From: Selaginella moellendorffii
Lineage: Eukaryota; Plantae; Lycopodiophyta
Length of the DNA stretch: 64,000 nt
Assembly (NCBI RefSeq): GCF_000143415.4
Contig: NW_003314391.1
Location: forward strand, 248,001-312,000
Direction of reading: 5' to 3'
Positions within the stretch are counted from its first letter, which is position 1; every line of letters starts with the position of its first letter. The notes beneath the pieces were generated by a model that worked only from the letters and a program-made list of their open reading frames with translations, searched no databases and was not told where the DNA came from. The translations under genes were made by a program, and so were the position numbers. Positions 18,344 through 63,676 of this stretch are shown one piece after another.

Positions 18344-18573
18344 TTACACCAAGGACTGATCAAACAAAAGTATAGCAATTTTGTTGTTGAGTAGTAATTA
18401 ATATCTTAAAAGTTATGGTTTACATAGCCCATTAACATATGGCAATGAATATGTGATTGTGCATGCCTATATTATATGCTATATATTTACATATGTGTGG
18501 ATTTAGTCTTTTTCATTTTGAGTTGCATGCAAAAATATTATGCACACAAACACTATATAACCAATTGAAATGT

Positions 18574-23448: not shown

Positions 23449-23701
23449 ATGTGATAATATTTTTTTCATAGGATATGCTATGTATGGATGGGGCATAACA
23501 TTTCAGATTGTCATGTAAAACTAATATCACATCATCTCATACAATATGACATCACCATGAATTTAGTGATGTTTTTTTTCCTTCTCAATTTTATATTATT
23601 GAGTGCAAATTTCTGATCTCTTAATTGTGACCATCTTTCTTGTAATTATATTTTTATTTCTTATGGCTTAGAAGTGTATCACCCTAATATAACCACCATG
23701 C

Positions 23702-27800: not shown

Positions 27801-28378
27801 TCTGCTAGTTGTAATGTACGGCTTATATACGCAATGGGATGGCATTGACTAGGCACACTTACGTTTTCTTGCATCAACACACCTCCAAGACCAATATCAA
27901 AAGCATCCATACACAAAATAAAAGGTCGAGTGTAGTCAAGATATGCTAAAACCGAAGGAGTTGTCAATAGCACTTTGAGATCCACAAACGCCCATTCACA
28001 ATCTGGAGAACAAATAAAAGATGACATTGATGACTTCAACAACACTTGCAATGGTGCAGTGCGATAAAAAAAATGATCCACAAAATGATTGAGATACTAC
28101 ACCTTGCCTAAAAAGCACTGCACATCATTCACACATTTAGGAGTAAGAAACTTTAGAATAGCCACAAATTTGTCATGATCAACTTGCAAACCTTTGTAAG
28201 AAATATAATATCCAAAATAAATCATGTCCTTAGACCCAAACATGCACTTCAACCACTTCAGCTTTAAACTAATGTCCCGTAGTCAATTCAACACTTTACA
28301 AACATTATGAATGTGCTCATCCCATGTCCCCTCTGAGTGAATCAAGACATCGTTAATGAAATCAACAGTCATCTCTAG
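24871..28378 (-). mobile_element. Decayed, 5'-truncated second copy of the 18574-23448 element
   Basis: Reverse-complement LTR (~24871-25023) and PPT, plus INT/RH/RT peptides near-identical to copy 1 (e.g. VERLVRTFKGMIAKYVNFQHSDWDGYLPSL). Interrupted by a TRIM. Confidence 0.9.
25144..26165 (+). mobile_element. TRIM (terminal-repeat retrotransposon in miniature)
   Basis: LTRs 25144-25313 and 26004-26165 (TGTAG..CTACA); TSD ATAAT on both sides; Met-PBS TGGTATCGGAGC at 25316; PPT GAAGGGGGGTGAG; non-coding internal region with tandem repeats. Confidence 0.95.
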
Positions 28379-37599: not shown

Positions 37600-40500
37600 G
37601 GACCAAGCTCAATATCGCAGGGGTTCTTAATACTAGTAAGTGCAAGTCAATAAATGAGTTATGTGGTGCTAGCAAATGCCTAAGGAAGAAGATCCAGGGT
37701 GGAAGCTCAAGATCTAAAGATAGGGCAATGCAAGGCCAAAGATTCCTGCCTAAACCTAGTGTCCACGAGAGGACAACTCACTAAAGGAACCAAGGCAGCA
37801 TTTTTGTGCTTACTCTCGGTGAAGAGTGACAAAAAGACGAGAAGGGAAGAAGTACCTTTAGTGATCCAACGGGTGTTGGACCAATTCCAGAATACCATGC
37901 CGGAGGAGCTACCGGCGGGGTTGCCCCCCGCACGACCAATAAAACATAAGATTGAGCTGGTCGAGGTGCTGAGGCGGTGGTTCGTCCCCCCTACCGTTTG
38001 AACGAAAAGGAACTTGAGGAGCTCAAGCACCAACTAGAGGAGTTAGTGGACAAAGGGTATGTTAGGTTGAGCAAGTCGCCATATGGGGCGCCGGTGTTAT
38101 TTGTGAAAAAGAAAGATGGATCTATGCGCATGTGCATAGACTACCGGTTGCTCAACAAGTATACAAAGAAGAACAAGTACCCTTTGCCAAGGATTGAGGA
38201 CCTGTTCAATAGGTTGGGAAAGGCAAAATACTTCTCGAGGATTGACCTAAGGTCAGGATACTACCAGATTAGGGTAGTAGAGGAAGATGTCAAGAAGACA
38301 ACCTATCGAACAAGGTATGGGAGTTTTGAGTTTCTGGTGATGCCTTTTGGGGTATGCAATGCGCCGGCAACGTTTTCGGCGTTGATGAACCACATCTTTG
38401 TACCATATCTAGATCACTTTGTGGTTGTCTATATTAACGACATCCTGAGCTAGAGGAGCACGCTAGAGGAGCATGCATGTTTGAGAAACTAAGGGAACAC
38501 TAGCTATATGCTAAAGAGAGCAAATGTGACTTTGCTCAACAAGAGGTAAAGTTTCTCATGCATGTGGTGGGCAAGGACGGGCTCAAAGTGGACCCTGAGA
38601 AGGTCTAAGTGATCCATGATTGGGAGCGACCATCGAATGTACACGAGTTAAGGGCATTCTTGGGGCTATGCAATTATTACCGAAAGTTTATCAGACACTA
38701 TTCGAGAGTAGCCCTACCCTTAATGAACCAAACGGGAAAAGGGAAGATGGTATGGACAGCGGAATGTGAGGCGGTATTTGTCCACCTCAAAGGGAAGTTG
38801 AGGAAGGCTCCCGTGTTGGCATTACCAGACTTTGGTAAGGACTTTGAGGTAGAAACGAATGCTTTAGACTTTGCGTTGGGCGCAGTTTTGAAGCAAGACA
38901 ACCATCCAGTAGCGTTCTTCTCGAAGAAGTTGGACAAGGCTCAACAGAAGTGGCCTGCCCATGAGAAGGAATTTTTTGCGGTGGTCAAGGCGCTCAAGGA
39001 GTGGCGACACTACCTTGGGAGACACTTCAAAGTTTACACGGACAATGTGGCAACAAAACACTTCTTGTCACAGCCTGACCTGAGGGGGAAACAAGGTCAG
39101 TGGGCCAATGCTTTGGCCGAGTTTGATTGCGAGATTCTGTACAATCTTGGGAAGAGCAACATCGTGGCGGATGCGCTAAGTCGAAAAGCGAGCTTGAAGT
39201 TGGCAATATCCAGCGCAACAGCAACCTTTTAGGATGATGTGCGGACAACATATGAGAACGATAGTCTAGCACAAGAAGTGTTGCTGCGGAATCTGGAGGC
39301 ACGGGAAGCTCACTAGAGAGGTGAGTTGCCAATAGAAGAGAAAACGGGCTATGCAGAATGCAATGGACTCATCTATTACAAGCAAACGAGGGTGTATGTT
39401 CTAGAAGGGGAACTAAGGAAGGTAGCCTTAGAGGAGTGTCATGACAGACCTCTTGCGGGACACGGCGGAGTGCCCAAGACGATGGGCTTACTCAAGAGGA
39501 AGTATCACTAGCCAGATAGGCTAAGGACGTTTAAGACTATGTAAAGACATATCCAACATGTCAGCAGGTCAAAGCCGTGACTAAGGCTAGTGGGGGCTTG
39601 TTGAAAAGCATCCCAATTCTAGATCGTCGGTAGAAATGTCTTACAATGGACTTCATCACGGGACTCCCCCCAAACAAGGGGTTCAATGTGATATTCGTGG
39701 TGGTGGACCGATTTTCGAAAATGGCACATTTCATACCCACCATAGCGGAAGTGGACGCGGAAGGTGTGGTGAAGCTGTTCTTCGAACAAGTGGTCCAAGT
39801 GCGGGACTTGCGGAAATGTGTTATAACAACTCACCACATTCGAGTATCGGGGTGAGTCCATGGGAAGTCATCAATGGGCGAGTTATTGAAGGTCTTGTGG
39901 AGCTCAGCGTGGTCGAGTATCATGGAGAGTTACCCACAGTGGAGGCATTCACGACAGAAAGACTCAACATTTGGAATCTAGTGAGGGATTCCTTGGAACG
40001 AGCTCAATAAAGGCGAACCAAGTACACGAACCAGAAGTGTCGGGATGTAGAGTTCCAAGCTGGGGAGAAGGTGTGGCTAAATACCAAGAACCTCAGGCTA
40101 CCAAGTGGGATCAGCCGGAAGTTGACCCAAAGGTAAAAATGCATGCATTCCGTAAATGAATCGATCTTGAGTTCCTTAAGCAGGTTCGCAGGGCCTTATG
40201 AGATTGAGGCATGAATCAGTAAAGTGGCTTACCGCCTCTGACTTTCTTGAGAGATGGGGAAGATGCACCCAATGTTCTACATGAACTTACTCAAGCCATA
40301 TTTTGAGGATCCGCTTCGCAAGGACCAAGTAAGGCTTTACCTGAAGTTATCCAAGGGGAAGAGGAATATGAAGTCGAGGTCATCCTCAATGCGCACAAGA
40401 GCAAGCGACAAGGACGCGAGGTGAAAGAGTTCCATGTGAAGTGGAAAGGATTTCCACACTGTGAAGCAATATGGGAACCGGAGGAGAACCTAGCGAACGC

Positions 40501-42109
40501 GGGAGATCTAGTGGAGGAATTTCTGCAAGGCAGAACTCTATGTACTTATGCAAAGTTCAATTAAAGTATCAATTTGTGAAGTTGAGCAATGGCATATGTT
40601 GGGACCCGAAGGCGCGCCAAAGGTAAGCTAATTAGCATGGGTTAGCTAGGTCGACCAGGCGTAGAAAACTATGCCCGACTCCCCACAGGGATGTCAAATC
40701 TGTAGACGTATTCTACAGAGGTTGGGTTCGAGTCCCAACCCCCTAGTAAAGCAAGGCTGGGTTCAAGTCCCAACCCCATACTAGGGCATGGTGGGGTGAA
40801 GAATAGGGACACCTATATTCTGTTGTCATGGCTCTTGGCTGGGGAGGCTAACTTAGGCACACCGCTAAGTGGGGGGATGCCCCCGAATACATGGTCAACA
40901 AGTCGTAGGATAAAAAGAGATGTTCGATGTGGGCATTGAACTTCTTCTATAGGTGGTGGAGTTGTAAGGAACCAACTCCCTGAGGTGTCGTAGGCTAAAG
41001 GATCCCCGAAAGCATGACCAAAATGGCAAAGAGTTCATCGGATGGGACCGAGTCTGAGATCGAGTCTAAGACCGACTTTGAGACCGAGTTCAAGATAGAG
41101 ACCGGAATCAAGTCCGAGGCCAACTCGGAGACCGAGTTCAAGACCGAGTTTGAGACCGAGTTTGAGACAGAGTCCGAGATCCAAGAATTGGGTCCGAGAC
41201 CGAGTCCGAAGTCGAGTCCGAAGTTAAGTCTGAGATCGGGTCCGAGATCGAGTCCGAGACCGAATTCGAAGTCGGGTCCGAGGTTGAGTCTGAGATCGAG
41301 CCCGAGACCGAGTCTGAGTACTAATACGGGTCAAGGGGTGAAAGCCCAAAGCGTGCGTCTCCCAGGAGAGGGGGGCTACAGGGGGTTCCAAAAGTATAGT
41401 AGGGATAGTGAGGTCCAAGAACTAGTCTTGAAAGAACTCTCCAATGGTACTTCCAAACTGACTTGAAGTTGAGACTGGGGCCGAGGGGCCTTGGGTGGGA
41501 GTGAGCATGAACTCAGTGGTGCTGGAGGGGCCACCCAAAGAAGTGCTCAAGAGCAGCTCCCACTCCCGAAAGGGAAACTGATTGCGGTGCTCCCGACTCA
41601 TGTGGAGTGGTGCCCCACTTGAGTACCTTGTGGCTCATTGGTCCTCACCCTTTCTAGGGGCTTGGGCCTTCCCTTCGGGATGGAAGTGGGGGGGTAAAAG
41701 TACCCATACCAGGCCGTTAGGCCACGGTGTTTCTCCCCGGCATCCCGAAGCAAGTATTGCACCCAAGACTTGGGATTTAGAGGGTCCCATGATCAAGTCT
41801 TGTAATACCAAAGGATGTTAAGAATCTAGAAGCTTGGTGTGCTTGGCTACTTGTGCTTGTGGGGAGTGTAGCCGAACTTTAAGTCCAGTCTAACCTAGGG
41901 AGGGGGATTGGGAGAGATTTGGGAATCCGTGGATGGATGGCGAATGCTCCGTTGCTCGTGCAGTGAGTAGTTGAAACCAAGTAGGACCAAGTAGGAGCTA
42001 GTACCATAGGCGAGAACCTTGGTGAGGGAACTTAGCAAAAGCCAAGGTAGTGTTGGATGGATAGACGAGGTAAACTGGCAAATTGGAAAGGAAAAATTTG
42101 TGGCTTATA
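37600..42109 (+). mobile_element. 5'-truncated chromovirus (Ty3/Gypsy): RT-RH-INT-chromodomain, structured 3' UTR, PPT, 3' LTR 40963-42109
   Basis: [50 protein letters not shown]; chromodomain EEEYEVEVIL...VKWKGFPHCEAIWEPEENL at ~40358-40527; PPT AGGTGGTGGAGT; LTR TGTAAGG...GGCTTATA; multiple frameshifts. Confidence 0.93.
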
Positions 42110-43162: not shown

Positions 43163-44293
43163 TAGACAAACACAAAACTAAATGACCACTCGAATCCAAC
43201 TCAACCGCAATAAGCTCACTAACGCATTTAGCCAGTAGCTCCAAGTATCTCTTGAAGAGGCTAGCTATGCATGATCAACACTTAATTGGAAGCAAAGTGA
43301 AGACCATAAGATGGACTTATATTGGTACACAACCTCCTCATAGACAAAGCTATAGTACGGATACCAACATCTCAACTTTAAACAATTAAGTTGGACATCA
43401 CCATCATCAACCAAGGTGCAAGGCCACCAAGACTAAGTCAAGATTAGTGAGAGCTCACTACTCTCATAGAGTTTAACAAAATGCAAGATGCAACCTGCCA
43501 CCAAACACAATGCTATAAAAGAAAGGCATAAGGGTCACCCTTCTCAAAAAAGCGCAACCACTTTTTTACACCAACTCCAGACTCTATCCAACTCAATTGC
43601 CTTAGCCCCAAAAGCTAGCATCCCTTCCGGGCTACATCATACAAACTACTTACTAAAGTTTTAAGCTAACCAAAGTCAATTTTAACCCTTTTACTAGTTT
43701 GTACTAGCTTATGAAAATGGAATGGTTTTCGAGCAAAATGATTAATAAATCAGCCATTGGAAAAGTTTAAGAAAATTTGTGGAAAATTTTCCATCTTAGA
43801 GAAAGAATGACTCTCAGTTCAAGAATGCAAACTTTCAAGACTCAACCAACTTCCTCCTATCTACAACTTCATATAGGTTCACCTTAACACAAATTCTTGA
43901 GACCTATAGTATGCTTAAGCATCGAATATCTTGCCCATATTTCCGACATCCAACATCGACATCCCAAAAATGCAAAAATGAACATCCAAAGCTTGATCAC
44001 AAAGACCATATATTTGGACATCCACATTGCACTAACACTCTTCTTCAACCATGTTCAAGATCCAATTGTGAGACACAAAATCCCTAGGCCCCAAAGTAGA
44101 GCCGGAAAGGGTGCCACGTGGTAGTGGCCGAAGCGAGAGCCAAACGAGCGTAACACGTTTGGACCAAAAGCTCCGACTTGAAAAGACAAGAGCGGGAGTG
44201 GAACTCCCAACGAAGTGCTCGAGGAACGAGCACGAAGCGAGCAAAAGGCGAGGCTCCAAAAAGGGACCCAAAAGGACCAACACATGACACGTG

Positions 44294-44773
44294 GGAGTCC
44301 GAAGTGGAGTCCGAGATGGACCCGAGATGGAGTCCAAGATGGAGTCCGAAGTGGAGTCCGAGGTGGACCCGAGATGGACCCGAGTTGGAGTCCGAAGTGG
44401 AGTCCGAGATGGACCCGAGATGGAGTCCGAGATGGAGTCCGAGATGGAGTCCGAGGTGGACCCGAGATGGACCCGAGTTGGAGTCCGAAGTGGAGTCCGA
44501 GATGGACCCGAGATGGAGTCCGAGATGGAGTCCGAGATGGAGTCCGAGATGGAGTCCGAGATGGATCCCGAGGTGGACCCGAGATGGACCCGAAATGGAG
44601 TCCGAGATGGACCCGAGATGGACCCGAGATGGAGTCCGAGATGGACCCGAGATGGACCCGAGATGGACCCAAGATGGAGTCCGAGATGGAGTCCGAGATG
44701 GACCCGAGATGGAGTCCGAGATGGAGTCTGAGATGGAGTCCGAGATGGAGTCCGAAGTCGAGACCGAGACCGG

Positions 44774-44805
<32 letters not shown>

Positions 44806-44915
44806 TCGGGACCGAGACCGAGACCGAGGCCGAGGCCGAGACCGAGCCCGAGCCCGAGTCCGAGTCCGAATCCGAGTCCGAGTCCGAGTCCGAGTCCGAG
44901 TCCGAGTCCGGAGCC
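44294..44915. repeat. Minisatellite (12-bp GAGATGGAGTCC/GAGATGGACCC then 6-bp GAGACC/GAGTCC units) in the left LTR
   Basis: Directly visible tandem units. Confidence 0.95.
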
Positions 44916-46241
44916 TGAGAGGGTGAAAGCCCAAAGCATTCGTCTCCCAGACCCTGGGGGGTTTGGTGAGCTCCAAAAGTATAGTAGGGGGAGGACTGTA
45001 GTGGAGCCAGTTTGGCCAGGAAAGGCCAGTTTGGCCCAGGAAGGCCGGACCCAGTGTTGGGTGATGAGCTGCCCACTGGGAAGTCCAAGACTAGAGTGAA
45101 CACGGACCAACAAGTGGGGTAGCTTGGTGAAGTGTTCAAGAGCCGGCTCTAGTTCCCCCGGGAGATCGACTGGCCGATGCTCCCAGTCCAAGTGTGGGTG
45201 GCACTACCTACTTGGATACCTGGTGTGGCTCAACGGAACCCGCTCTAAGCCCATGGCTAGAGCACCCAAGGGCAGAAGGCGAGGAGAGTACCCAGGTGGC
45301 TCGCGTAAGGCCACGGTGTTCCGAAATGTTGTCCCAAAGGCCCAGACTGTGGAAAGGAAGAGGAGCAGTCCTCTGGGGTAGTGACCAAGGACACAGTCGT
45401 GTGGTGAGGAAGTCCCAGAGGACCGTGGGACTTAGTGGTCGGGCCTGTGGGTCTCGATCCAGTGGCAGTGTTGGCAAACATGGCCAGGGGCAGAAAGGGA
45501 CTTAGTGGGGACTGACAGAGGGATATTGGGGAAGGCTATTCCCCTTGTCGATGGGCATCCTAAGGATGCTAAGGAGTGGATCTGAGATGACCACTCACGG
45601 ATGGTTTGCCTAGTCTTGGAGAGCCAAGACGGTGATGCAAGTGGTATTGGACTACCAGTGTGGCAAAGGTGATTGGGCATGGCCTTAGCGTAACGGGCTG
45701 CTATGTCGGTGGTACCTTTGAGTGTCGGTCATGGGATCGGACACGTGGAGCACTTGGACCAAGTGCAAATGTTGAGTGGCATGGATGCCATTCTCGGGGC
45801 TAGCAAGTCCCAAGTCCTGGATTGGACTTATGGAGGTTGTGAATGAGACTCCTCCAAGTGGTCAGAGGTGTGGTTAAGTGACTAAAGTAGAATGGAAAAT
45901 TTAGTCGCTTACAATTTGGTATCGGAGCGGTCTCAGGTCCGACTCTGTTGGTTGGCTAAGGGAATCACACCACATGTTGATTGACATCTGACTGGTCCAG
46001 TTTGCTCCCGCTGGGCTCGACCCGAGGGGTAGGGTGTCAAGAGAGCAGGGCTCTCGGGAGAGCTATGGCTCTCAGCTTCCGTTCACGAGGGCGTGAACTT
46101 GCAGGGAAACGTGGTGGATTGTAAGCAACCAAAGGGAACGACTCGAGAGACGATCCATGGGGTTCAAATATAGAGGGAAAGGGCCCATGAATAAGAGTGC
46201 ACCCCCTTTTCCAATCGGTTAAGGGTCTTGGGATATTTGGG

Positions 46242-46296
46242 GTTAAGCGTCCTTGGGTTTGAATAGTACTGGGCTGGGTGACCTCCCGGGAAGTCC
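46242..46296 (+). promoter_or_regulatory. 5S rRNA-derived internal Pol III promoter (A box, IE, C box) within a 194-bp mini-LTR (46120-46313)
   Basis: GTTAAGCGTCCTTGGGTTTGAATAGTACTGGGCTGGGTGACCTCCCGGGAAGTCC aligns without gaps to the plant 5S core GTTAAGCGTGCTTGGGCGAGAGTAGTACTAGGATGGGTGACCTCC(C/T)GGGAAGTCC (recalled consensus; about 47-48 of 55 identical). Confidence 0.9.
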
Positions 46297-49200
46297 AAAC
46301 TAAGGAGCCTACATTTGGTATCAGAGCTGTTCCTTAGTCCAACTTTTATTGGTGCTCAAGTATATCACCACTAGTGTTGGCATCGGAAGGTCCGAGGAGT
46401 GGGCCTATCCTTGAGGAGTAGCAAGTCGGGAAGACATGGCTCTCCATTACAGTTCATGTATAAACTTGTAGACGAGGTGGTGGATAGAAAAGGGCCAATA
46501 ATGGAACGACTTTGGGATCTTGGGAACAGTGCAAGGTTTTCCTCATTGAGTTGAGGATGTGATCCGGATGAGCATTTGTCTCAGCAAATTGGCTAAGGTT
46601 GTTGTGGTAAACAACTAAAGTTGGGATCACGGGAAAGATAGAGACTCCAAAACAATAAAGGAGTCACAAAATTATCCTCATATAGTTGAGGTTGGTGCTC
46701 ATGAATGTGAGACCAGAGGTAATGACCGTGGGAGGTCAAATACGGAAGAGGACTCAAGTCCTTGAAATGGTAGCCAGGGCTACCTTTAATAAATGCTGGA
46801 ACAACTCAAGGAGTTGGGGGGTGTACTTAGGGATGAGTTGGTGTTCTCATCACATGGACAAGTAGTCCTAAGGGGCAAAGGTTGCCCCCAGAGAACAAAA
46901 TCAAGTGTCGGAGTAACACTTGTGAAAATAGTCCTTTTGAGTAGGACAGGAATGCAAGAAGTGTATTCCAGTGAGCTAGTGCCTCACAAGTAGGACCTTA
47001 CGGGTCTGTGGATTAACTAAGTCCAAAACTGTTGGATGACTCAAGTAGAGTCAACGGATGGTCCTAAAAGGACTGATGGAAGCATTTGGACTGAGGTGTG
47101 TTGTACCCCACAAAGGATGGGAGGGGATCATAGGATCCAAGGATGAGAACAGAGGGTATCTCATCGATGGCAAAATGTGCCATGCTAAAGTTATGGGAAA
47201 GGTGTTCCCAGAAGAAAACAACTTTGACATAAAGTTGTGTGTGACCTCTATGGTGCAGTGCTAACGGATGGTTGGCATGAGAAAGAGCGGTGTTGGTCTT
47301 GGCAAAGACTTAAACACGAAGGGGAAATGTCATAGAGGTAGGCTCGTGGAGCCGATGGTGTGGAGACACCAAATGTGCCAAGGTGTGATACCTTGAGGCT
47401 ATGTTGGTGGGTTCATGAGAACCCCTTGCCAAAGGAATCCCAATGGAAATGGGAATAGCATAGCCTAAGCTGCAGAGCATGCAGTTGGAGTGTGGTGACC
47501 CAGATAATGATGGAGGTGTGGAAGCACTAGCAATGAGTTGTAGGACTTGACAATTACAAGGCAACTAAGCAAGAGGTGCAAAATAACTGGTTAAACGGGT
47601 AGAAGGTAGCTACCCAAGACTTCTTAATAGCATAGGGAAGTTGGATATACCCTTACGAAGGATAACTTGCTTGTGTTGCGATATAGTAAGTCAATGTCAT
47701 AAAAGGAAATACTCATTGTCAAGAAAGCCATCATTGGGACACCCGAACACTCTAGAACACCAGAAGGTGGTGTTTGATGTCGCGAGGGCAATGGATAAAG
47801 CCCAAGGGACTAAGTCCCTAGCGAATGATGGATAGAAGGTGCTATCCAAATGTCCAAAGTTGCGGAGACAAGAGAGGACTGTTTACCCGAGTTGGACAAA
47901 GCCAAAAATGGAATTTTGGCAAGGCTAGTGATGGGCATGTAAAGGCCCATAAGCAACAACGTAATCCCGGTGTGTGGGATTATAGGGTGAGCATACCTGG
48001 ATTGAGGAACCACTCCCTAGGCTATTGGGTAGGTTCATCCCTAAGAATACTTGCTAAAGCATGATAGAAAGTGCAAAGCTATCCTCCTGGTCTGGAGGAG
48101 AATGACCAAAGGAAAAGTGTGAAGCCAAAAAGCAAGAAGTAAGGGGATAGAACCGAACCGTAGGAATCAAAGGGCATAACCAAGGTTGGTTATGCCAGCT
48201 GGGAGTGGAGAATCAAGTGGGGGCTCGAGGGTGTTGCCGCTAGCAACCGTGATGCCATGGAGAGTCTAAAATATGGAATTGTCCATGTTAGACTATGTGG
48301 CATTTGGAAGGCTTGCAAAAAGGGAGGCCTTAGCAAGCTGAGGGACAGAGTTCCTTCAAGGTTCCCAAAGACGATTCTAGGTAGCTTAGTACCTAGAAAG
48401 GCCAAGTGTAAATGGTTCATGGAACGCGCGAAATCAGAGTGGCGCAGCAGAAGCGTGGTCTTGAAACTTGCCATGAGGCAAGGCTATCAAGGTTAGGGAA
48501 GTAGTTCCTGAGTGTTCAAAGAGAGGGCTTTGAACGAAAGTCGATGGTCAAGGACTTTCACGCTTATGCAGGAACCATGTTACAGTGGTCGGAGGACTTG
48601 CCAAGCGAGATTGGCACGTCGGGGGAACAAATACCCTAGTTGAAGGTGATAACTTCAAAAAGGGTGGGCCATGGGGCCGAGCATGGAGGAGTCCATGCAT
48701 GATCACAGACATGTCAAGTGAGAGGACTTGGCAGTGTGGAGGAACTAGGTTCCTAAGCTGTGATCTGTAGCGCGCTTTAAAAATAAGTTGGTGCACCGGC
48801 GTGGGGAGTCACGCCAGGCATCTTGTGTGATGCCGTCCGTAGATGCATATACGGAGGTTGGGTTCGAGTCCCGACCCTCTAGTGCTTGGGTTCGAGTCCC
48901 AAATCACTAGGGTGTGGTGATGGTTTGGAATATGAGGACACTCATATTTCGGTGGTCATGGACTCTCAGTGGGGAGACTGGTTTGGGCACACCGCCAAGC
49001 GAGGGATGCCTCGGAGTCGTGATGCACGGTTAGATTGCTTAGTGTGAAAGCTCGGCATATCTAACTTGAACGCTTTGGTGCGAGTGGCACCAAGGACGTG
49101 GTGAGTGAGATGGGGACACCTAATCTCAGTTGCTATGGACCCTTGGCCGGAAGGGCTGGCTTGGGCGCACCGCCAAGTGTGGGGGATGCCCCCGGGGTCG

Positions 49201-50213
49201 TAGTTAACAAATTAAAGGTCTGGAAGACCTAGTACCTATTGGCCGAGGTGAGATCACTAGGTGATCTTGTGGCTAAATAAGGACAAGGTCCTTGTTTGGG
49301 TTAAGGAATAAGGTTCCTAGTTCAAAGTGTTGATTTGAACTATTGATGATGGTGTGGCTTGGTCAAGGTGACCAAGTGGGAAAAGCACCCTAGGGAAATG
49401 AGCTATGTCATTGCGATGGCATAGTGTGTCCAAGGAAAGTAGTCTCTAAAGAGACCCATGGGAGGGTCACAAAGTTGGGCCGTGGATAGAGCCCACAGCA
49501 GAAGATGCTAAAGAGACTTACTAGGGGCGAACACCCTAGTCTTGGCAAAGCAGAGCCTTTGCTAAGGAATCACAAGAATACCTCAAGGAGGGAGGTAGAG
49601 ATTCGATGTTGCTTGGTGCAACAATCAACGGATAGGAGCAAAAGATGAGTGGCCAAGATAGGGCCGTGGAATCCCTTGGAAGGAATCCAAGTGACAAAGT
49701 TAGGCGAGGAACACTAATGTGTTGGACGCTAACAAATTCCGGAAAAGGAAGTGTGTTTCCAAGGATGAATTCCGAATTGCTCTGATTTGGCGAAAGTGGA
49801 AGCTCCAAGGGAGGGAGCGGTAAGGTAGCCAAATGATAGGGCCATGGACAGCCCTAGCACAAAGTATGATAAATGGAACTTAGTGCCCAAGGTGGCACGA
49901 AATAGAAGAGAGGATGATGGTGCCCTCAAGTAATGAGCTTCCTAGGATGGGGAAGTGGAGTTGCACAATCTGTGCAATGCAAGGTGTTGGAGACACCTAG
50001 GAAATTGACTTCCAAAAGTCAAAAGAGTAAAAGTTCCAAGGTGCAAACGTTCAATAGATGGAAATTGAGACTACTTGAGAAGGAGTAGCGGGATTGACTT
50101 AGAGAAGGGTCTCTAAAAGGTTTAGCGAGAACTAAACCAATAAAAGGAGAGAACCACTACATGTGGTCCAATTAGTCTCTAAGTTGGAGAGACAACCCCT
50201 TTAAAGGATAGGT

Positions 50214-50345
50214 AAGGCATGGTGAGCCTTTGGTGTCAAACCATTGAGGAATATGCAAAAGGCATGGTGAGCCTTCAATGGCAAACCATTGACGAATATG
50301 GAGAAGGCATGGTGAGCCTTCAATGTCAAACCATTGACAAATATT
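50214..50345. repeat. Three tandem ~45-bp units upstream of the PPT
   Basis: AAGGCATGGTGAGCCTTCAATGGCAAACCATTGACGAATATGGAG-type unit, three copies. Confidence 0.9.
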
Positions 50346-50675
50346 GGCTAGGTGCCAAGGATGGAAATGGTAACACATGCGGGTGTTACTTTATAAAATG
50401 GTTTACCGTTCGATGAGGACATCGAACTTCGTCTATGGGTGGTGGAGTTGTGAGACACAAAATCCCTAGGCCCCAAAGTAGAGCCGGAAAGGGCGCCACG
50501 TGGTAGTGGCCGAAGCGAGAGCCAAACGAGCGTAACACGTTTGGACCAAAAGCTCCGACTTGAAAAGACAAGAGCGGGAGTGGAACTCCCAACGAAGTGC
50601 TCGAGGAACGAGCACGAAGCGAGCAAAAGGCGAGGCTCCAAAAAGGGACCCAAAAGGACCAACACATGACACGTG

Positions 50676-51133
50676 GGAGTCCGAAGTGGAGTCTGAGATG
50701 GACCCGAGATGGAGTCCGAGATGGAGTCCCAAGTGGAGTCCGAGGTGGACCCGAGATGGACCCGAGTTGGAGTCCGAAGTGGAGTCCGAGATGGACCCGA
50801 GATGGAGTCCGAGATGGAGTCCAAGATGGAGTCCGAGGTGGACCCGAGATGGACCCGAGTTGGAGTCCGAAGTGGAGTCCGAGATGGACTCGAGATGGAG
50901 TCCGAGATGGAGTCCGAGATGGAGTCCGAGGTGGACCCGAGATGGACCCGAAATGGAGTCCGAGATGGAGTCCGAGATGGACCCGAGATGGAGTCCGAGA
51001 TGGAGTCCGAGATGGACCCGAGATGGACCCAAGATGGAGTCCGAGATGGAGTCCGAGATGGACCCGAGATGGAGTCCGAGATGGAGTCTGAGATGGAGTC
51101 CGAGATGGAGTCCGAAGTCGAGACCGAGACCGG

Positions 51134-51165
<32 letters not shown>

Positions 51166-51275
51166 TCGGGACCGAGACCGAGACCGAGGCCAAGGCCGAG
51201 ACCGAGCCCGAGCCCGAGTCCGAGTCCGAATCCGAGTCCGAGTTCGAGTCCGAGTCCGAGTCCGAGTCCGGAGCC
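50676..51275. repeat. Minisatellite in the right LTR (22 bp shorter, with reshuffled units relative to the left)
   Basis: The offset between the two repeats changes from 6382 to 6360 across the array. Confidence 0.9.
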
Positions 51276-54200
51276 TGAGAGGGTGAAAGCCCAAAGCGTT
51301 CGTCTCCCAGACCCTGGGGGGTTTGGTGAGCTCCAAAAGTATAGTAGGGGGAGGACTGTAGTGGAGCCAGTTTGGCCAGGAAAGGCCAGTTTGGCCCAGG
51401 AAGGCCGGACCCAGTGTTGGGTGATGAGCTGCCCACTGGGAAGTCCAAGACTAGAGTGAACACGGACCGACAAGTGGGGTAGCTTGGTGAAGTGTTCAAG
51501 AGCCGGCTCTAGTTCCCCCGGGAGATCGACTGGCCGATGCTCCCAGTCCAAGTGTGGGTGGCACTACCTACTTGGATACCTGGTGTGGCTCAACGGAACC
51601 CGCTCTAAGCCCATGGCTAGAGCACCCAAGGGCAGAAGGCGAGGAGAGTACCCAGGTGGCTCGCGTAAGGCCACGGTGTTCCGAAATGTTGTCCCAAAGG
51701 CCCAGACTGTGGAAAGGAAGAGGAGCAGTCCTCTGGGGTAGTGACCAAGGACACAGTCGTGTGGTGAGGAAGTCCCAGAGGACCGTGGGACTTAGTGGTC
51801 GGGCCTGTGGGTCTCGATCCAGTGGCAGTGTTGGCAAACACGGCCAGGGGCAGAAAGGGACTTAGTGGGGACTGACAGAGGGATATTGGGGAAGGCTATT
51901 CCCCTTGTCGATGGGCATCCTAAGGATGCTAAGGAGTGGATCTGAGATGACCACTCACGGATGGTTTGCCTAGTCTTGGAGAGCCAAGACGGTGATGCAA
52001 GTGGTATTGGACTACCAGTGTGGCAAAGGTGATTGGGCATGGCCTTAGCGTAACGGGCTGCTATGTCGGTGGTACCTTTGAGTGTCGGTCATGGGATCGG
52101 ACACGTGGAGCACTTGGACCAAGTGCAAATGTTGAGTGGCATGGATGCCATTCTCGGGGCTAGCAAGTCCCAAGTCCTGGATTGGACTTATGGAGGTTGT
52201 GAATGAGACTCCTCCAAGTGGTCAGAGGTGTGGTTAAGTGACTAAAGTAGAATGGAAAATTTAGTCGCTTACAATTTGGTATCGGAGCGGTCTCAGGTCC
52301 GACTCTGTTGGTTGGCTAAGGGAACTACACCACATGTTGATTGACATCTGACTGGTCCAGTTTGCTCCCGCTGGGCTCGACCCGAGGGGTAGGGTGTCAA
52401 GAGAGCAGGGCTCTCGGGAGAGCTATGGCTCTCAGCTTCCGTTCACGAGGGCGTGAACTTGCAGGGAAACGTGGTGGATTGTAAGCAACCAAAGGGAACG
52501 ACTCGAGAGACGATCCATGGGGTTCAAATATAGAGGGAAAGGAACCAACTTAAGCTTAGCATAATGGATCACCATTGAGAATCCAGTCAAAGCTACTATA
52601 ATGTTATTACTTGCAAATAGACTAGCTTCACCATCAACCACTTTGGGGTTGATCATTGTTTGACCAAGCAACTTCGTAAACACATTGTTTATTATCACAT
52701 GGATATGATATAGAAATCACAATGACTTGATCATCAATTGAGCAACACCATGAGCAACTCCCACATCATTACTATAAAGGTTTACGTGACTATCAAGTGC
52801 CAACTCGATTCGACAAAATACACCATAAATGCCACACCCCACCAATAGAAATTTACAACATTTAACACCACAAATTTTTGTTCACAACACAGACAAGCTC
52901 ATGCCACTCTCTTTTTGACTAACCTCAAAACTAATCCAACATTAAGCTACTTAAGGAGCAATAGCAAGGTTTCCCGAAAAAAAAGTGAGTATTGCAACCC
53001 AAGTCTTCAAAAACAAGCCTCTCCTTTACGTTCAAAGATGTTAAAACTCAGACACCCTCCAGCCGTTGTGCTTGTCCATGAACCTTTATCTCATACCTGG
53101 GGTATTACGTTTATGTTGGACAAGTATATAACTTGATGGCAAGAGTATAATGTTTGAGTCTTGTGAAGGCAAGTTGAAATAGTGATTGCTAATTGCTTGG
53201 CAACTAATAATTACTTGTAGACTTTGTCAAGGACTGTTGACACTTGCTTCACTCAATGTTGATTTAGCAGTGATGCATTTGCTTTACCAGTTAGTGTTGC
53301 AAAGGATTGTGTCATAGGCTTGCTTTCCATATTGGGATATCAACTCTACCTTTGACGATATTATTTAGTTGTGTTTAATCCATAGTGTTAGATTTTATGG
53401 AGTCTTGGATGTGGTGAATCACTCTTTGATGATGTGTTATCTGTAAGTGAGTATTGTTGAAAAATTAGTCTTAAATACTGACTAAATTATCTTCAGTTTT
53501 GGTTAGCTTGGTTGCTAAAGAATTTTGAATGGTGATTCACTTTTGTTTTCTATTAGCTTTATTATGGTGTTGATAGCATTGAAGTGATGCCTTGTCGTTG
53601 ACAATATTGATATTGAGATTCAAGTGAAATGAAATGTCTCTCCTTAGAATTGATATTGAATTTCATTAGTCTTGATATAGATAGTGTTAATGATTTAGTT
53701 ATAGCTTTATGTTATTAACATTCATGCATTTGTTAATTAGCAACTTGACGTTGAAACGATCTGAGTGGCAAGTGGAGTTAGTTGTGTTCTAGATGAGATT
53801 GCTTAGTCAAGGTTGAGTTTTAGCTTTTCCTTGAAAAGTGATTTAGTCATGGACTATACTAACTTTACGAGAGGAAGAATTAGTGATTGATATTAAAATG
53901 TTTGAATCTTAGTTGGATTTAATTTGGGAATATATCGATTATTGATGATTCTTCTAGTACTTGTTATGAAGTGAGTTACGTTTTATTATAGATGGATTCA
54001 TGAAGGATCGATTAGTTGGTCACTTGTTGAGCATCGCTTCGTTATGCTTAACTTTTGGATTAATGCAGATATGTTCTTCATTAGCTTTAACATTATGTAG
54101 TTTAACTTGTGGATGTGTTGAAGAAGATATTATGGGTTGTACCATGATTTCTTCTTTAGCATTAATGTTAGTTCTTGCGAAACACGTGATCATTTATTAA

Positions 54201-58750: not shown

Positions 58751-59061
58751 GCAGGATCGCCAACCTGTGAATCTTCTTCAAATATCCAGATTGATTCTAT
58801 ATTTGCTTTTTGAGAGCCAAACCGTTAAATCTAATACGTCCATTCATAATCTAACGGTTGGCGATGAGAGTAGAGGACTCAAGGTTTGTGTCGCAATGAA
58901 GAGAGGGAGGGGGTCCAAGGTTTACGTAGCGTCCTCGCTGGTGAATCTGGTCGCGGTGAGAAGCTCTGGGTTACTCAGGGCCCCCGACACCTTGCTTGCA
59001 AGGGTATGAGCAATAGCAATACATCAACACCCACAACTTGTTGAAAGTCAAAGAAAGTCAA

Positions 59062-60981
59062 ATGGAGTTCAGAACAAAAGGAGGAGAACCAGATTCTACT
59101 TTGATGGTAGCTTATGCAATGTCCATCACGGAATCTCCTCCAATTCCTTCGACTCTCCCGTTTCTCAAGAACAAATCTTTCTATGCCCAACAGATCCGGT
59201 CTTGTGCAGCATCCAAGGATCCAAGCCAGGCCAAGAGACTCCACGAGGAAATCCTTGGGACTCATCTCTGGGACAATCGCTACATCAGCAATCTCCTCAT
59301 CGAGATGTATGGAAAGTGTGGAAGCGTGGACAGAGCACTTGACGTGTTTCATAGGATCCCTCTGCCAAACTCCTTCTCGTGGAACATCATGATAGCCGCA
59401 TACATCCAGAACGGGCAGCTCCAAGAAGCTGAGAAGATGTTTGCAAGAATGCCGGTTAAGAACGTTGTCTCGTGGAATGCGATGGTAACGGCATATGCTC
59501 ATTTTGGGCAGATGGAGCAAGCGGTTGAAACTTTTGAAAGCATGCCCGAGAAGGACACAACGTCCTACAACGCAATGCTTACGGCATTAACAGAGAGAGG
59601 CGAAATGAGAAAAGTGGAAGAGTTCTTTGAGAAAATCCCAGACAAAGATCCGGTGTCTTGGAGTATAATTGTTACTGCTTATGCCCAAGCTGGGCATATG
59701 GAAAAAGCTCTGGAGTTCCTTGAGAGAATGCCGGGGGCGTGTGTCTTTGCCTGGAACGCTCTCCTGTCGGGCTACACAATCCATGGAAGGATTGACGATG
59801 CGAAAAAATTGTTTGAGAGAATGCCACAGCGCGACTCTGTGTCATGGAACACTCTCATGTCGGCGTACGCTCAGCTTGGTCGATTTGCCGAGGCCAAGTC
59901 TCTGTTTGATCGGACTCCACAGCGCAACCTCGTCTCCTGGAACATTATGATCAATGCATACGCAGTGAATCGCCAGCCTCACGAAGCACACCGCGTTCTT
60001 GATCGAATGCCGAGAAAAGACTCTACCTCGTGGAACGCAGTGATGGGAGCCTACGCACAGAACGGCCTCCCGGAAGAAGCCAAGCTCATATTTGATAGAA
60101 TGCCGTCCAAAAACTCCATCTCCTGGACGATCATGGTGGTGGCCTACGCGAAATCCGGCAACGTAGAGCTCGCGAGGAGCTTCTTCGACAAAATCTCTCA
60201 CCGAAACTTGGTGTGCTGGAACACGATGATCACGGCGTACTCCCAGCACGGTCAAGCCCGGCAAGCCTTCACTCTACTGGGCTCCATGGATTTGGATGGC
60301 ACCAAACCCGACAACATCACTCTTGTCGCAGTCTTGGACGCCTGTGCCAGTTCCAACGCCTTGTCGGACGGTCGGATGGTTCACGACATGGCGGCAAGCG
60401 ACAAGGCTCTGCTAGATCCTGTCGTGGAGAGCGCGCTCGTCAACATGTACTCCCGCTGTGGCTGCCTGGGAGAAGCCCGACAGGTGTTTGAGAGCTCGGT
60501 GGATCGAGACGTGGTGGTGTGGACAACAATGGTGACGGCCTATGCGCAGAGCGGCCATACCAAGGAGACGATCGAGCTCTTCCTGGCGATGGTGTGTGAC
60601 GGCCTTCCACCGGACCCCATAACATTCACCGCGGTCTTCTCGGCTTGTAGCCATGCCGGAAAACTCGATGTAGCATTGGAGTTCTTCGTGACAATGGTTG
60701 GAGATTTCGGTACCTCGGCTCAGAGGGATCACTACAGCATCATGGTCGATCTGCTGGGACGATCCGGGAGGACGGCAGAGGCGCGAGAGCTCATGGATTC
60801 TATGCCGTGCGAGCCTGATGATATTGCATGGACGACGCTTCTCGGGGCGTGTAAGACGCACGGAGACGCGAACCGAGGAGCCGGAGTGGTGGAGCGTCTG
60901 TATCGCAAGAGACCGGATGTGTCGTCAACTTACACTCTCGCGTCTGGATTGGTGAGAGGCGTAGCTCCGATCGATCGATGA
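59062..60981 (+). CDS. PLS-class PPR protein with (truncated) E domain, intronless (ATG 59062 or 59119)
   Basis: Tandem SWN..I.AYA..G motifs; FSACSHAG, HYSIMVDLLGRSG, AWTTLLGACKTHGD; no DYW domain. Confidence 0.92.
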   Translation: MEFRTKGGEPDSTLMVAYAMSITESPPIPSTLPFLKNKSFYAQQIRSCAASKDPSQAKRLHEEILGTHLWDNRYISNLLIEMYGKCGSVDRALDVFHRIPLPNSFSWNIMIAAYIQNGQLQEAEKMFARMPVKNVVSWNAMVTAYAHFGQMEQAVETFESMPEKDTTSYNAMLTALTERGEMRKVEEFFEKIPDKDPVSWSIIVTAYAQAGHMEKALEFLERMPGACVFAWNALLSGYTIHGRIDDAKKLFERMPQRDSVSWNTLMSAYAQLGRFAEAKSLFDRTPQRNLVSWNIMINAYAVNRQPHEAHRVLDRMPRKDSTSWNAVMGAYAQNGLPEEAKLIFDRMPSKNSISWTIMVVAYAKSGNVELARSFFDKISHRNLVCWNTMITAYSQHGQARQAFTLLGSMDLDGTKPDNITLVAVLDACASSNALSDGRMVHDMAASDKALLDPVVESALVNMYSRCGCLGEARQVFESSVDRDVVVWTTMVTAYAQSGHTKETIELFLAMVCDGLPPDPITFTAVFSACSHAGKLDVALEFFVTMVGDFGTSAQRDHYSIMVDLLGRSGRTAEARELMDSMPCEPDDIAWTTLLGACKTHGDANRGAGVVERLYRKRPDVSSTYTLASGLVRGVAPIDR

Positions 60982-63554
60982 TCGTGGTGTTTGAAGAGAT
61001 TCGCGAGCATCACGTATGGAGCTGAGTCTGTGGGACTCAATCCCGCCGCTCGCTGAGCAGCTCGCAAGCCGAGGTCGCGATTTTCGCTGCCACCGTCAAC
61101 CCGGCATGCGCTCAGCACGCTCGTCCAAGCGGCAGCGTCTGGCTCAAAAGGCATGGATCTTATGAGCTGTTCGACGTCGCGAAGTTTTCCAGCGCGAGCG
61201 AGGACGTCGATGATGCAGCTATACATCTCCAGCGTGGGGGTGATGGAGTAATTGTGCAGCATCGCTCCAAACAGTGCGAGGCCATCGTCAAGCATCCCAG
61301 CGTGAGCGCATGCCGAGACGGCGGCCTTGAAAGTCACCTGATCTGGAGAGTTTCCTTCGAGCTCCATGGCCTGGAGATACTCCATGGCGAGATCGAGCTG
61401 CCCGTTATCAGCGTGAGCCGCGACTACGGCAGTGTAGAGAACGGTGTCTCGGGCTTCCATCCCCTGGAAGATATTCATTGCTTCGTCCAGCCCTCCACAC
61501 TTCCCATAGAAGCTCACGAGCGAGCTTCCGAGTTCCGGGGAGCGGCTGATGCTGGTGAGCGAGATCTCACTGTGGATCGATCGCCCCTCGTCCAGAGCTC
61601 CCAAACCAGCGCAGGCATCGACGGCGGCAGCGTAAGTCAGCTCGTCGATCGCCACCGATTCCTCGTTCCTCATTCTCCGGAAGAGCTCCACGGCCAGTCT
61701 CATATGCCCGTTACGGGCATACGCTCCAACCATAGCGTTCCAGGTGAGAGTGTTTCGATCGGTCATGCTATCAAAGACTCTTCTCGCTTCTTCGACGCTG
61801 CCAACTTGTCCATAGCCGGTGATCATCGCATTGCACGCTGCTGGAGAGTGCCGTGGCATTCTCTCAAATACATCCCTTGCTTTGTCGAGATGACCATTCG
61901 CGGCATAGGCTCCAAGCATCGCATTCCAGGCCGCGAGATCTTTCTCAGGCATGGCATCAAAAGTCCCTCTAGCACTAGCAAGATCGCATAGCTCACCGTA
62001 CATGGTGATCATAGTTGTCCACGAAACCACGTCCCTGAGAGGCATTTTAGAAAAGAGACTTTCAGCTTGGAACAAATGCCCAAGCTGGGCATATGCAGAA
62101 ATGATAGAGTTCCACGATGCTGTATCCCGCATTGGCATTCTATCAAACAGTCCTCTCGCCTCGTCGATGAATCCAGCCTGAGAGAGCGCCGCTATAAGGC
62201 AATTCCACGAGATTGGATCGCGCTCCGGCATCTCCAGAAAGAGATCCATCGCCTCGTCCAGAAGCCCATTCCCGGCAAATCCCGCAACCATGGCATTCCA
62301 CGACACGAGATTCCTCTGCGGCATCTTCACGAACACCTCCCTCGCATCCTCCACGAAACCTCGCTCGCAAAACCCCACCAAGAGCGCCGTCCACGACACG
62401 GAGTCGTGCTCCGGCATCGCCTCTTCGACCGTGCGCCTCGCCACGTCTAAGCTTCCGTGCTGCGAATATCCCACAACCATTGAGTTGTACGACACGAGAT
62501 CCCTCTCTTGCATTGCGGAGGAGAAGAGCTTCTCGGCCTCGTCCAAGCTTTGGTTGTGTACGTACGCCGCAAGCATCGAGTTCCACGAGACGATGTCCGG
62601 CTCTGGGATGCCGTCGAAGATCCGCTTGGCATCCGCGAGATGCCCTGGCCTGTGGGTGTACGCTGCGATCATCGCGTTCCAGGTGACGTTGTTCGTCCCG
62701 GGCATCTTTTCCATGAGCGACAGTGCCTCGTCCACAAGGCCGTGGTGGGCGATTGTGCTGAGCAGCGTGTTAAACGAGATGAGATCCTTCTGGGGCATTT
62801 GTTCAAACACAGTTCTCGCCTGGGAGATCTGGTTGCTCTGCGAGAACGCACAAAGTAGAGTGTTCCACGAGACGAGATTGTGCTGTGGCATCCGATTGAA
62901 AGCCTCTGCGACGCTGGAGGTTTTTCCGGCTTGGCAGTAGGCACTCAAGAGAGTGTTCCACGACACAATGTCTCGCTCCTTCATCGCTTGAAACAACGTT
63001 TCCACTCCATGCAAATGCCCCAGCCGGGCATTTGTCGCAAGCATGATATTCCAAGTTACTGTGTCCTGCTGTGGCATTTTCTCAAACAAACTCATGGCCT
63101 CTTCCTCATGCCCAGCTTGTGTATAGGCTGATATCATTGAGTTCCATGAGACCACCACTCTTGGTTCCGGCATCAAATCAAAAAGTTGACGCGCTTCTTC
63201 AAGATGCCCTTTTTGGGCATATGCGGTGATCATGGTGTTCCACGAGACTGAGTTTCTTACGGGCATCTTGTCAAACATCTTCTTTGCCTGCTCGAGGCGA
63301 TTGTTAAGGACAAAAACAGATAACATGATGTTCCAGCTGAAAACATTCGGCTGGATTGTGTGCTCGAACACCTTTTGTGCATCCGCCACGCTCCCGCATT
63401 TGCCATACATGTCTATGAGGAGGTTTGAAAGGTAGAGCTTGCCGCTGTGCTCGCCACCAGCGATGGATTCGTGGATTTGCCTTCCCTCGAAGAGATTCCT
63501 CTTTTTCCCGCATTGCCGTAGCAAATCGGCATACTCGGACACTGAACAAGACAT
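60930..63554 (-). CDS. PLS-class PPR protein with E domain, 874 aa, intronless
   Basis: More than 20 short PPR motifs; SACAHAG, YSCIIDVLARAG, AWTSVLSAC, SAPYVMLANLF; no DYW domain. Confidence 0.95.
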   Translation of the reverse strand: MSCSVSEYADLLRQCGKKRNLFEGRQIHESIAGGEHSGKLYLSNLLIDMYGKCGSVADAQKVFEHTIQPNVFSWNIMLSVFVLNNRLEQAKKMFDKMPVRNSVSWNTMITAYAQKGHLEEARQLFDLMPEPRVVVSWNSMISAYTQAGHEEEAMSLFEKMPQQDTVTWNIMLATNARLGHLHGVETLFQAMKERDIVSWNTLLSAYCQAGKTSSVAEAFNRMPQHNLVSWNTLLCAFSQSNQISQARTVFEQMPQKDLISFNTLLSTIAHHGLVDEALSLMEKMPGTNNVTWNAMIAAYTHRPGHLADAKRIFDGIPEPDIVSWNSMLAAYVHNQSLDEAEKLFSSAMQERDLVSYNSMVVGYSQHGSLDVARRTVEEAMPEHDSVSWTALLVGFCERGFVEDAREVFVKMPQRNLVSWNAMVAGFAGNGLLDEAMDLFLEMPERDPISWNCLIAALSQAGFIDEARGLFDRMPMRDTASWNSIISAYAQLGHLFQAESLFSKMPLRDVVSWTTMITMYGELCDLASARGTFDAMPEKDLAAWNAMLGAYAANGHLDKARDVFERMPRHSPAACNAMITGYGQVGSVEEARRVFDSMTDRNTLTWNAMVGAYARNGHMRLAVELFRRMRNEESVAIDELTYAAAVDACAGLGALDEGRSIHSEISLTSISRSPELGSSLVSFYGKCGGLDEAMNIFQGMEARDTVLYTAVVAAHADNGQLDLAMEYLQAMELEGNSPDQVTFKAAVSACAHAGMLDDGLALFGAMLHNYSITPTLEMYSCIIDVLARAGKLRDVEQLIRSMPFEPDAAAWTSVLSACRVDGGSENRDLGLRAAQRAAGLSPTDSAPYVMLANLFKHHDHRSIGATPLTNPDARV

Positions 63555-63676
63555 CGGAAAAGTGTGATCTTGTCGACGCCAGGAATTCGTGAGATTCTTC
63601 TTATTACGTTACTGCTACTCCCTCTCTCTCGATCCGGCTATAAGACCTCCGGGAAATGCCACATCCTTGGTGGCAA

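Follow-up and report, generated by a model that had tools for sequence, protein, structure and literature searches.

A 64,000-nt stretch of the Selaginella moellendorffii genome (the window; RefSeq assembly GCF_000143415.4, contig NW_003314391.1, positions 248,001 to 312,000 of the forward strand) carries two long terminal repeat (LTR) retroelements that share a block of about 230 nt with a predicted hairpin structure. One is a non-coding element of the large retrotransposon derivative (LARD) type, and the other is a broken Ty3/gypsy chromovirus, in which the block lies between pol and the 3′ LTR. The parts of both elements are listed below by their positions in the window, together with the primer-binding site (PBS), the polypurine tracts (PPT) and the 3′ untranslated region (UTR).

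44067-52542, plus strand: LARD, a non-coding LTR element of 8.5 kb
44067-46313, plus strand: LARD 5′ LTR, composite, with a Cassandra-like 5S segment at its end (46120-46313)
46316-46327, plus strand: LARD PBS, TGGTATCAGAGC
46314-50448, plus strand: LARD internal region, non-coding and hairpin-rich, with the PPT at its end
50449-52542, plus strand: LARD 3′ LTR, truncated, with 98% identity to its 5′ counterpart
37885-40564, plus strand: chromovirus pol, Ty3/gypsy, broken, with reverse transcriptase (RT), RNase H, integrase region and chromodomain; 5′ part absent; SM1-Galahad-like
40649-40884, plus strand: chromovirus 3′ UTR copy of the block (palindrome and hairpins H1 to H8)
40963-42109, plus strand: chromovirus 3′ LTR, 1147 bp, with the PPT just before it

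The 4.1-kb interior of the LARD (46314-50448) contains no stop-to-stop open reading frame (ORF) of 150 amino acids lying wholly inside it, and a tblastn search with 120 gypsy proteins gave no match at E ≤ 1, so that the label LARD is a fair one. The element also has the 98% identical LTRs, the PBS, the PPT before 50449 and the multi-kilobase interior devoid of gag and pol that characterise this class. The chromovirus is recognised by RVT_1, RT_RNaseH and a C-terminal Chromo domain (E 3.7e-14), with unbroken tblastn cover over 37885-40516. Its LTR measures 1147 bp and its chromodomain is off the pol frame. SM1-Galahad is described with LTRs of 1076/1146 bp, a chromodomain in a separate short ORF and an RT of the Galadriel clade (PMC3350952). 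The LTR length and the off-frame chromodomain fit this description, and SM1-Galahad is the likely candidate name for the chromovirus. The LTRs of the chromovirus and the LARD are about 70% alike over part of their length, which indicates that the two elements are related. The contig depth over 701 nt (17,904 and 22,910 pieces) points to a repeated family, depth being no measure of copy number.

The LARD LTR has a compound make-up, in which an LTR ending at 45913 and a PBS at 45917 are separated by about 200 nt from a PPT and the 194-bp Cassandra-like LTR that follows it (46120-46313). The latter contains the A and C boxes of 5S genes, both with a single mismatch to the published patterns (PMC7215508), and matches the Rfam 5S model at E 0.012, below the gathering score. 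Thus, a Cassandra-like unit sits inside a LARD LTR of a lycophyte. In both elements the LTRs are filled with tandem repeats of a 12-nt unit, itself based on 6 nt (41047-41332, 44291-44930 and 50673-51290). Within the chromovirus pol, a 51-nt GT..AG insert with an in-frame stop occupies 40133-40183 in the integrase C-terminal region, where the homologue P0004 shows a 17-residue gap. By its sequence the insert looks like an intron, which may account for the SM1-Galahad chromodomain being reported outside the main ORF.

The block itself consists of a palindrome followed by eight hairpins, the last three of which recur further downstream in the LARD.

48769-48776, plus strand: second 8-nt palindrome, AGCGCGCT; GGCGCGCC at 40611-40618, at another spacing, is a candidate counterpart without shown homology
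48790-48797, plus strand: 8-nt palindrome GGTGCACC, abutting H1 on its 5′ side and corresponding to GGTCGACC at 40649-40656
48798-48815, plus strand: H1, 7 bp, loop GGAG (fold and pair comparison)
48817-48834, plus strand: H2, 6 bp, variable loop (fold, contig variants and pair comparison)
48836-48855, plus strand: H3, 6 bp, 8-nt loop (fold and pair comparison)
48856-48876, plus strand: H4, 7-bp stem with tRNA-type T-loop UUCGAGU, a B-box at the DNA level (fold)
48877-48912, plus strand: H5, minihelix-like, with a lower stem of 8 bp, an internal loop and a T-stem of 5 bp with loop UUCGAGU (fold and pairs)
48927-48950, plus strand: H6, long stem with GACA tetraloop
48981-49012, plus strand: H7 (loop GCACACCG) and H8 (loop GAUG), with covarying stems
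49107-49194, plus strand: diverged second H6-H8 copy of the LARD; 14 of 14 compared pairs kept, two of them changed on both sides

An initial annotation, made from the letters of the window, had described five hairpins with two T-arm mimics at 48798-48912 and a second copy at 40658-40786, and all five stems and both TTCGAGT loops lie where it placed them. Folding of the plus strand gives exactly H1 to H5, at -64.4 kcal/mol (z -4.7) for the LARD copy and -64.0 kcal/mol (z -5.6) for the chromovirus copy, and none of 200 shuffles reaches the fold energy of either copy. The minus strand of the LARD copy folds at -55.8 kcal/mol; this difference in predicted energy and the G-U pairs on the plus strand favour sense RNA as the folded form. 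The stem of H4 has 7 bp in both copies, while the T-stem of H5 has 5 bp in the LARD and 4 bp followed by a mismatch in the chromovirus. A tandem T-loop pattern matches twice in the 64-kb window, compared with a mean of 0.00 in 100 shuffles. The folding z-score is not distinctive within the LARD interior, where three other 120-nt windows reach z -5.6 to -6.4 and 19 of 67 such windows lie at z ≤ -3; in the chromovirus, windows starting at 39900-40560 have z -1.7 to +1.1, and the UTR falls to -4.6. What distinguishes the block is its presence in both elements, not its z-score.

Three further structural candidates fared less well. A D-loop mimic in the GGAG loop of H1 is weakened by the chromovirus copy of the window, which reads AAAA there, and a kissing loop in H3 (ATGCAT) was dropped, as the second copy does not share it. 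A switch in which the 3′ GGTGTGG displaces the 5′ strand of H1, is 11.8 kcal/mol worse than the predicted fold.

The flanks of the five hairpins had been held to share no similarity, which is incorrect: the likeness runs on to 49010/40881 (73% over 188 nt), through H6, H7 and H8, all of which had been missed, and the PPT ends match too. The 3′ half of the block recurs in the LARD at 49110-49194 (78%), and in H6-H8 the loops (GACA, GCACACCG and GAUG) are conserved while the stems change. At the 5′ end, the palindromes GGTGCACC and GGTCGACC differ by a swap of the central pair, a double transversion that retains self-complementarity, and the predicted self-duplexes of the 12-nt stretches around them reach -18.3 and -17.1 kcal/mol.

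Comparison of the LARD interior (4.1 kb) with the part of the chromovirus present (3.3 kb, 37601-40963) yields three shared stretches at E ≤ 1, namely the block, the second copy of its 3′ half and the end at the PPT, so that the block is the sole internal one apart from the PPT end. H1 begins 94 nt past the chromodomain/pol stop in the chromovirus, and the block lies about 2.5 kb downstream of the PBS in the LARD. From the end of H5 to the LTR (measured to one base past the LTR start), the distance is 1538 nt in the LARD versus 178 nt in the chromovirus, which shows that the block survived in the LARD as an island. A covariance model built on the two sequences found no third copy in the window (next score 11.6 bits versus 147 and 179).

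The pairing was compared over 56 hand-aligned pairs of the LARD and the chromovirus, of which 40 are the same, ten are changed on both sides, five are changed on one side and one is broken. Random placement of the same 26 changes breaks 10-16 pairs (P ≤ 0.0002), although these P values are optimistic because the helices were chosen by eye. H1 to H5 alone (38 pairs) show four double changes, four single changes and one broken pair (P 0.01 or less), and the six hairpins without a B-box covary. The G-C to A-T change noted in H5 is real (48884/48905 versus 40748/40779). The more general statement that stems change while pairing is kept holds for the ten double changes, with a single broken pair, but not for H3, where the difference is private to the chromovirus copy of the window: at 40701 and 40717, both CpG sites, 92-97% of the contig depth reads the LARD state. 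In the H1 loop, too, most of the chromovirus contig depth reads the LARD state.

These counts bear on the view that the block is a relic, that is, that the LARD inherited a 3′ UTR fragment whose hairpins reflect a general richness in structure and whose covariation stems from chance or deamination. The hairpin-rich nature of the whole LARD interior, the location of the H3 covariation at two CpG sites private to one copy, and the predominance of transitions among the double changes would all fit. Yet ten broken pairs would be expected even with a 25:1 transition bias, whereas one of 56 was observed; retention is island-like, the H6-H8 duplicate keeps 14 of 14 pairs, and G-to-A changes avoid stems. 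A mere relic is accordingly considered very unlikely.

Variants in contigs of DNA runs from one sample, taken as the best 40 per contig set, provide a partly independent test. Among the 32 variants listed for H1 to H5, 16 are unpaired, ten keep and six break a pair; at a share of at least 12%, a cut-off picked after looking, the 23 variants comprise 14 unpaired, eight pair-keeping and one breaking. Five breaking variants, all in the chromovirus set, are G-to-A changes with a share of 10% or less, as expected from decay in dead copies. Where the chromovirus copy of the window has A and most contigs have G, five of ten unpaired G but two of 29 paired G are hit (Fisher p 0.007), and both of the paired differences keep their pair. 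Contigs of the two families mix across H4-H5. Pair keeping, island retention and the variants all back the proposal of a selected cis-acting RNA structure that the non-coding element kept from a chromovirus relative, and the structure is very probably real and selected.

A separate observation concerns the direction of change. Compared with the contigs, the chromovirus copy (40590-40900) shows mostly plus-strand G-to-A changes (14 A>G versus 4 T>C places, run X1, p 0.03), and this strand bias is absent from the LARD contig set (9 and 9).

A protein-free element needs only cis functions. On modelling and analogy, the preferred reading, with a probability of roughly 45%, is that the block is a cis-acting signal by which the genomic RNA is dimerised and packaged. 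The sense RNA would fold into the eight hairpins, two genomes would be joined through the 5′ palindrome, and the row of hairpins, including both T-arm copies, would serve as a handle held by Gag, Gag-Pol or a host tRNA-binding factor. This function is favoured because the kept island consists of a palindrome and a hairpin row, and because T-arms stand beside the packaging core of an endogenous retrovirus (ERV). Short palindromes are common to retroviral dimer-initiation sites (PMC5874298), and both copies of the block carry a short self-complementary one that is maintained through a double change. The packaging or dimerisation signal suggested in the initial annotation gains, at the level of sequence, from this palindrome (GGTGCACC versus GGTCGACC), which had been overlooked there.

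The ERV parallel comes from a metagenome scan in which 14 of 63 loci represent a gammaretroviral ERV (Gag MA and p30, with gammaretroviral capsids as the nearest solved structures). In its leader, a pair of GACG hairpins on one side and gag on the other enclose two to five tandem T-arm hairpins of 38 nt, whose T-stem and loop are those of the block (L136, positions 2870-3170; also L141, L142, L146, L149, L154, L164, L165, L168, L171, L176, L181, L190 and L191). All ten distinct units (56 copies) keep six of six lower-stem pairs, the T-stem being fixed by the search, and a Rfam scan of the leader in two loci gave no match. Leaders of this sort are presumably VL30/MDEV-like. The likeness is one of analogy, not homology. 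By extension of this analogy, the T-arm hairpins (GGG-UUCGAGU-CCC with an extended stem) of the lycophyte chromovirus 3′ UTR, its non-coding parasite and the vertebrate gammaretroviral leader might represent a convergent design of genomic-RNA signals, by which the genome hitches itself to tRNA-recognising machinery, either the element's primer-tRNA packaging or host tRNA export. This idea is doubtful; if true, plant retrotransposons would gain an export or packaging path without NXF1.

Several points weigh against a role in dimerisation and packaging. Retroviral dimer and packaging signals are located near the 5′ end and not in the 3′ UTR (PMC5874298), whereas the block is not in a 5′ leader near the PBS; the two elements may also share a 5′ signal, the 5′ region of the chromovirus falling outside the window. 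Palindromes of 8 nt are frequent (16 in the LARD interior and 13 in the chromovirus part); the one proposed here lies outside any hairpin loop, part of it is paired in the predicted structure, and freeing it by an alternative fold costs 11.8 kcal/mol. GACG kissing loops have a CG that is missing from the GACA loop, and the minus strand of the chromovirus copy folds as well as the plus strand (-65.5 versus -64.0 kcal/mol). In the predicted minimum fold of the ERV array, the repeats pair with each other and leave one local T-arm, and the 14 ERV loci are probably redundant assemblies. When the variants listed are counted whatever their share, the test on them loses significance (six breaks among 32; P 0.08 and 0.11), the two-row shuffle control of the tool is uninformative (139/500), and the comparison spans two families of one species. 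Finally, the block occurs in none of 28 chromovirus-like IMG/VR loci of other organisms, five of which have less than 200 nt after the pol match and are too short.

At the DNA level, the two T-loops correspond to the B-box sequence GGTTCRAGTCC, present twice in each copy, and tandem B-boxes might bind TFIIIC as an insulator or act as an internal RNA polymerase III (Pol III) promoter, the hairpins being secondary. LTR elements are known to have captured Pol III promoters, Helenus-1_SMo of the same species among them (PMC10886601), and the LARD LTR has its Cassandra-like 5S segment (E 0.012, below gathering score). An A-box-like 11-mer is present at 48789, but the chromovirus copy has no A-box (one of two copies), and 0.14 chance matches are expected per 80 nt. 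Neither element has a run of four T anywhere between the block and the far end of the 3′ LTR (0 versus 3.5 + 1.0 and 0.5 + 2.1 expected, 7.1 in all); for the LARD this absence has P 0.015, and the upstream counts are as expected (4 versus 4.6 and 9 versus 9.1). The T-run result is nevertheless post hoc and one of 32 tests, and runs of G and C are scarcer than in shuffled sequence as well. The block is internal in both elements and not within an LTR, as it would be in Helenus/TRIMp3, and an A-box upstream of the B-box, the arrangement of Helenus and of tRNA-derived short interspersed elements, is found in the LARD copy only. Because the boxes are internal, a transcript starting from them would be without the PBS. 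Moreover, the stems run 4-5 bp past the B-box. Of the tandem B-box insulator put forward earlier, the duplicated B-box sequence thus stands, but the 7-bp stems and the six other covarying hairpins are left unexplained, and a DNA-level element appears unlikely from the sequence.

The same T-loops could make the block a stability or modification module, in which the T-arms, by analogy with tRNA, are substrates of pseudouridine 55 or 1-methyladenosine 58 (m1A58) enzymes or of RNase P/Z, and protect or process a long 3′ UTR. In sequence, H4 and H5 of both copies fit GUUCNANNC within a T-loop hairpin and the rule of GUUCNA in a T-loop for human mRNA targets of TRUB1 and TRMT6/61A, and TRUB1 marks were reported in one of two studies to stabilise mRNA (PMC11019747). 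The start of the block 94 nt past the pol stop would suit such a role in the chromovirus, but there is no reading frame in the LARD that would need protection. Reverse transcriptase stops at m1A58 (PMC13191261), cleavage would sever the genome before the 3′ LTR, and the 40 best-supported variants of each contig set include none at the four A58-like positions. A module of this kind is therefore given little credence.

The position of the block recalls another class of signals, since the transport elements RTE, MTE and CTE are located between the last gene and the 3′ LTR. Like the RTE of intracisternal A particles (IAP) and the MTE of MusD, the block might be a nuclear-export element for unspliced genomic RNA, with T-arms that borrow a tRNA-recognising export or transport factor. 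Exportin-t needs mature tRNA ends, which an internal hairpin does not have, and this counts against such borrowing. Spliced and unspliced forms may exist in view of the 51-nt GT..AG insert in the chromovirus pol, and the LARD RNA likewise needs export. Mouse LTR retrotransposons rely on structured cis elements for export that is independent of splicing, and plants reportedly do without the TAP/NXF1 receptor (PMC12786077, PMC5767303). The block nevertheless shows no sequence or Rfam likeness to known export elements, and export leaves the palindrome unexplained. Export, which was absent from the initial annotation, is considered rather unlikely and about as plausible as the B-box function.

No tRNA or Rfam match explains the block: ARAGORN reports no tRNA gene in the window, and the Rfam scans contain no tRNA match. 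Rfam 15 gave no match at E ≤ 10 over 48798-48912, and what it matched around the chromovirus copy is at chance level (E 1.7-8.9). The whole-tRNA mimic suggested in the initial annotation is not supported, for want of a D arm, an anticodon arm and a CCA end. Interdigitated T-loops are 5-nt motifs, whereas the loops here are 7-nt and of the tRNA type, so that an elbow-binding double T-loop is not supported either.

Beyond the window, none of the 63 metagenome loci had blastn similarity to it at E ≤ 0.001, and the two-sequence covariance model found no homologue in the 91 loci searched out of 292 (best 28.8 bits, with H1 unpaired). A T-arm is present in one of the 28 chromovirus-like IMG/VR loci, inside its LTR; the LTR of this pol-coding chromovirus (L200, 4830-5065) contains two tRNA-like segments with A-box and B-box-like sequences in the Helenus pattern. 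On viral contigs, a loose tandem T-loop pattern hit at least 121 loci, and the matches listed are, by eye, mostly phage tRNAs with a second T-arm; a stricter pattern left 13 loci. A pattern of T-loop plus GACA gave two loci, both of them ARAGORN tRNAs, and the ERV-unit pattern gave 65 loci, 56 on ARAGORN tRNAs and none with three hairpins. Three raw RNA runs, sampled at about 12%, contained 1, 0 and 0 reads, too shallow to test expression.

Elsewhere in the window, a terminal-repeat retrotransposon in miniature (TRIM)-like element (25132-26165) has LTRs of about 170 bp, a PBS, a weak T-loop hairpin just past the PBS (25337-25349) and an internal 275-nt tandem duplication. An older gypsy element with 182-bp LTRs (18570-23451) is without the T-loop block, and an inverted decayed relative of it spans about 24865-28375. 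A host gene in the window matches a Selaginella moellendorffii protein with 100% identity across 98% of the query. Two inverted gene pairs, at 9645-18343 and 59017-63608, consist of L-gulonolactone oxidase-like copies (90% alike) and of PPR genes, both long and with a single ORF, that face one another.

It is already known that RNAs of LTR retroelements can carry structured cis elements and that LTRs can contain promoter boxes derived from tRNAs. That a plant chromovirus and a LARD have in common an internal, covarying block containing two T-arms is undescribed in the literature searched, with subscription journals, Repbase and older VL30/MDEV papers outside reach, nor is it described in the available text of papers on these families (PMC2864245, PMC3350952). 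The export of plant LTR retrotransposon RNAs, their pairing and their selection for packaging are largely unstudied, as is the way in which LARDs borrow from a helper; according to PMC12786077, there has been no direct study of export in plants. By marking 230 nt kept from a helper-type relative, with a clear predicted fold and two tRNA T-arms, the non-coding element opens this question to tests on a short transcript and in a reporter.

Among known systems, SL-A to SL-D of murine leukaemia virus resemble the block in combining a short palindrome with a row of stable hairpins, one of which has a GAC-purine tetraloop (PMC5874298). They differ in lying in the 5′ leader instead of the 3′ UTR and in having GACG instead of GACA; the palindrome of the block is not in a loop, and there is no sequence homology. 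The RTE of IAP and the MTE of MusD are likewise multi-hairpin cis-acting RNA elements of LTR retrotransposons outside the reading frame, but they act via NXF1/RBM15 in mammals, T-arm mimicry is unmentioned in the available text (PMC12786077, PMC5767303), and they give no Rfam or sequence match to the block. Helenus/TRIMp3 elements, including Helenus-1_SMo, share with it a tRNA-like B-box in an LTR retroelement of the same species; they have one tRNA-like unit of A- and B-box, whose conservation is at these promoter boxes, within an LTR of 120 bp (PMC10886601), whereas the block has two internal T-arms, an A-box that is not shared and covarying stems, and outside the T-arm the Helenus LTR is, by eye, unlike it. 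The tRNA-like element of HIV-1 also mimics part of a tRNA in retroelement genomic RNA, but it is the anticodon arm that is mimicked, next to the PBS, for binding LysRS (PMC4810235), while the block mimics the T-arm twice and far from the PBS. LARDs such as Sukkula are large and non-coding, with LTRs, a PBS, a PPT and a structured core (PMC7215508), as is the LARD described here, which differs in that its structured island can be traced to the 3′ UTR of a helper-type chromovirus.

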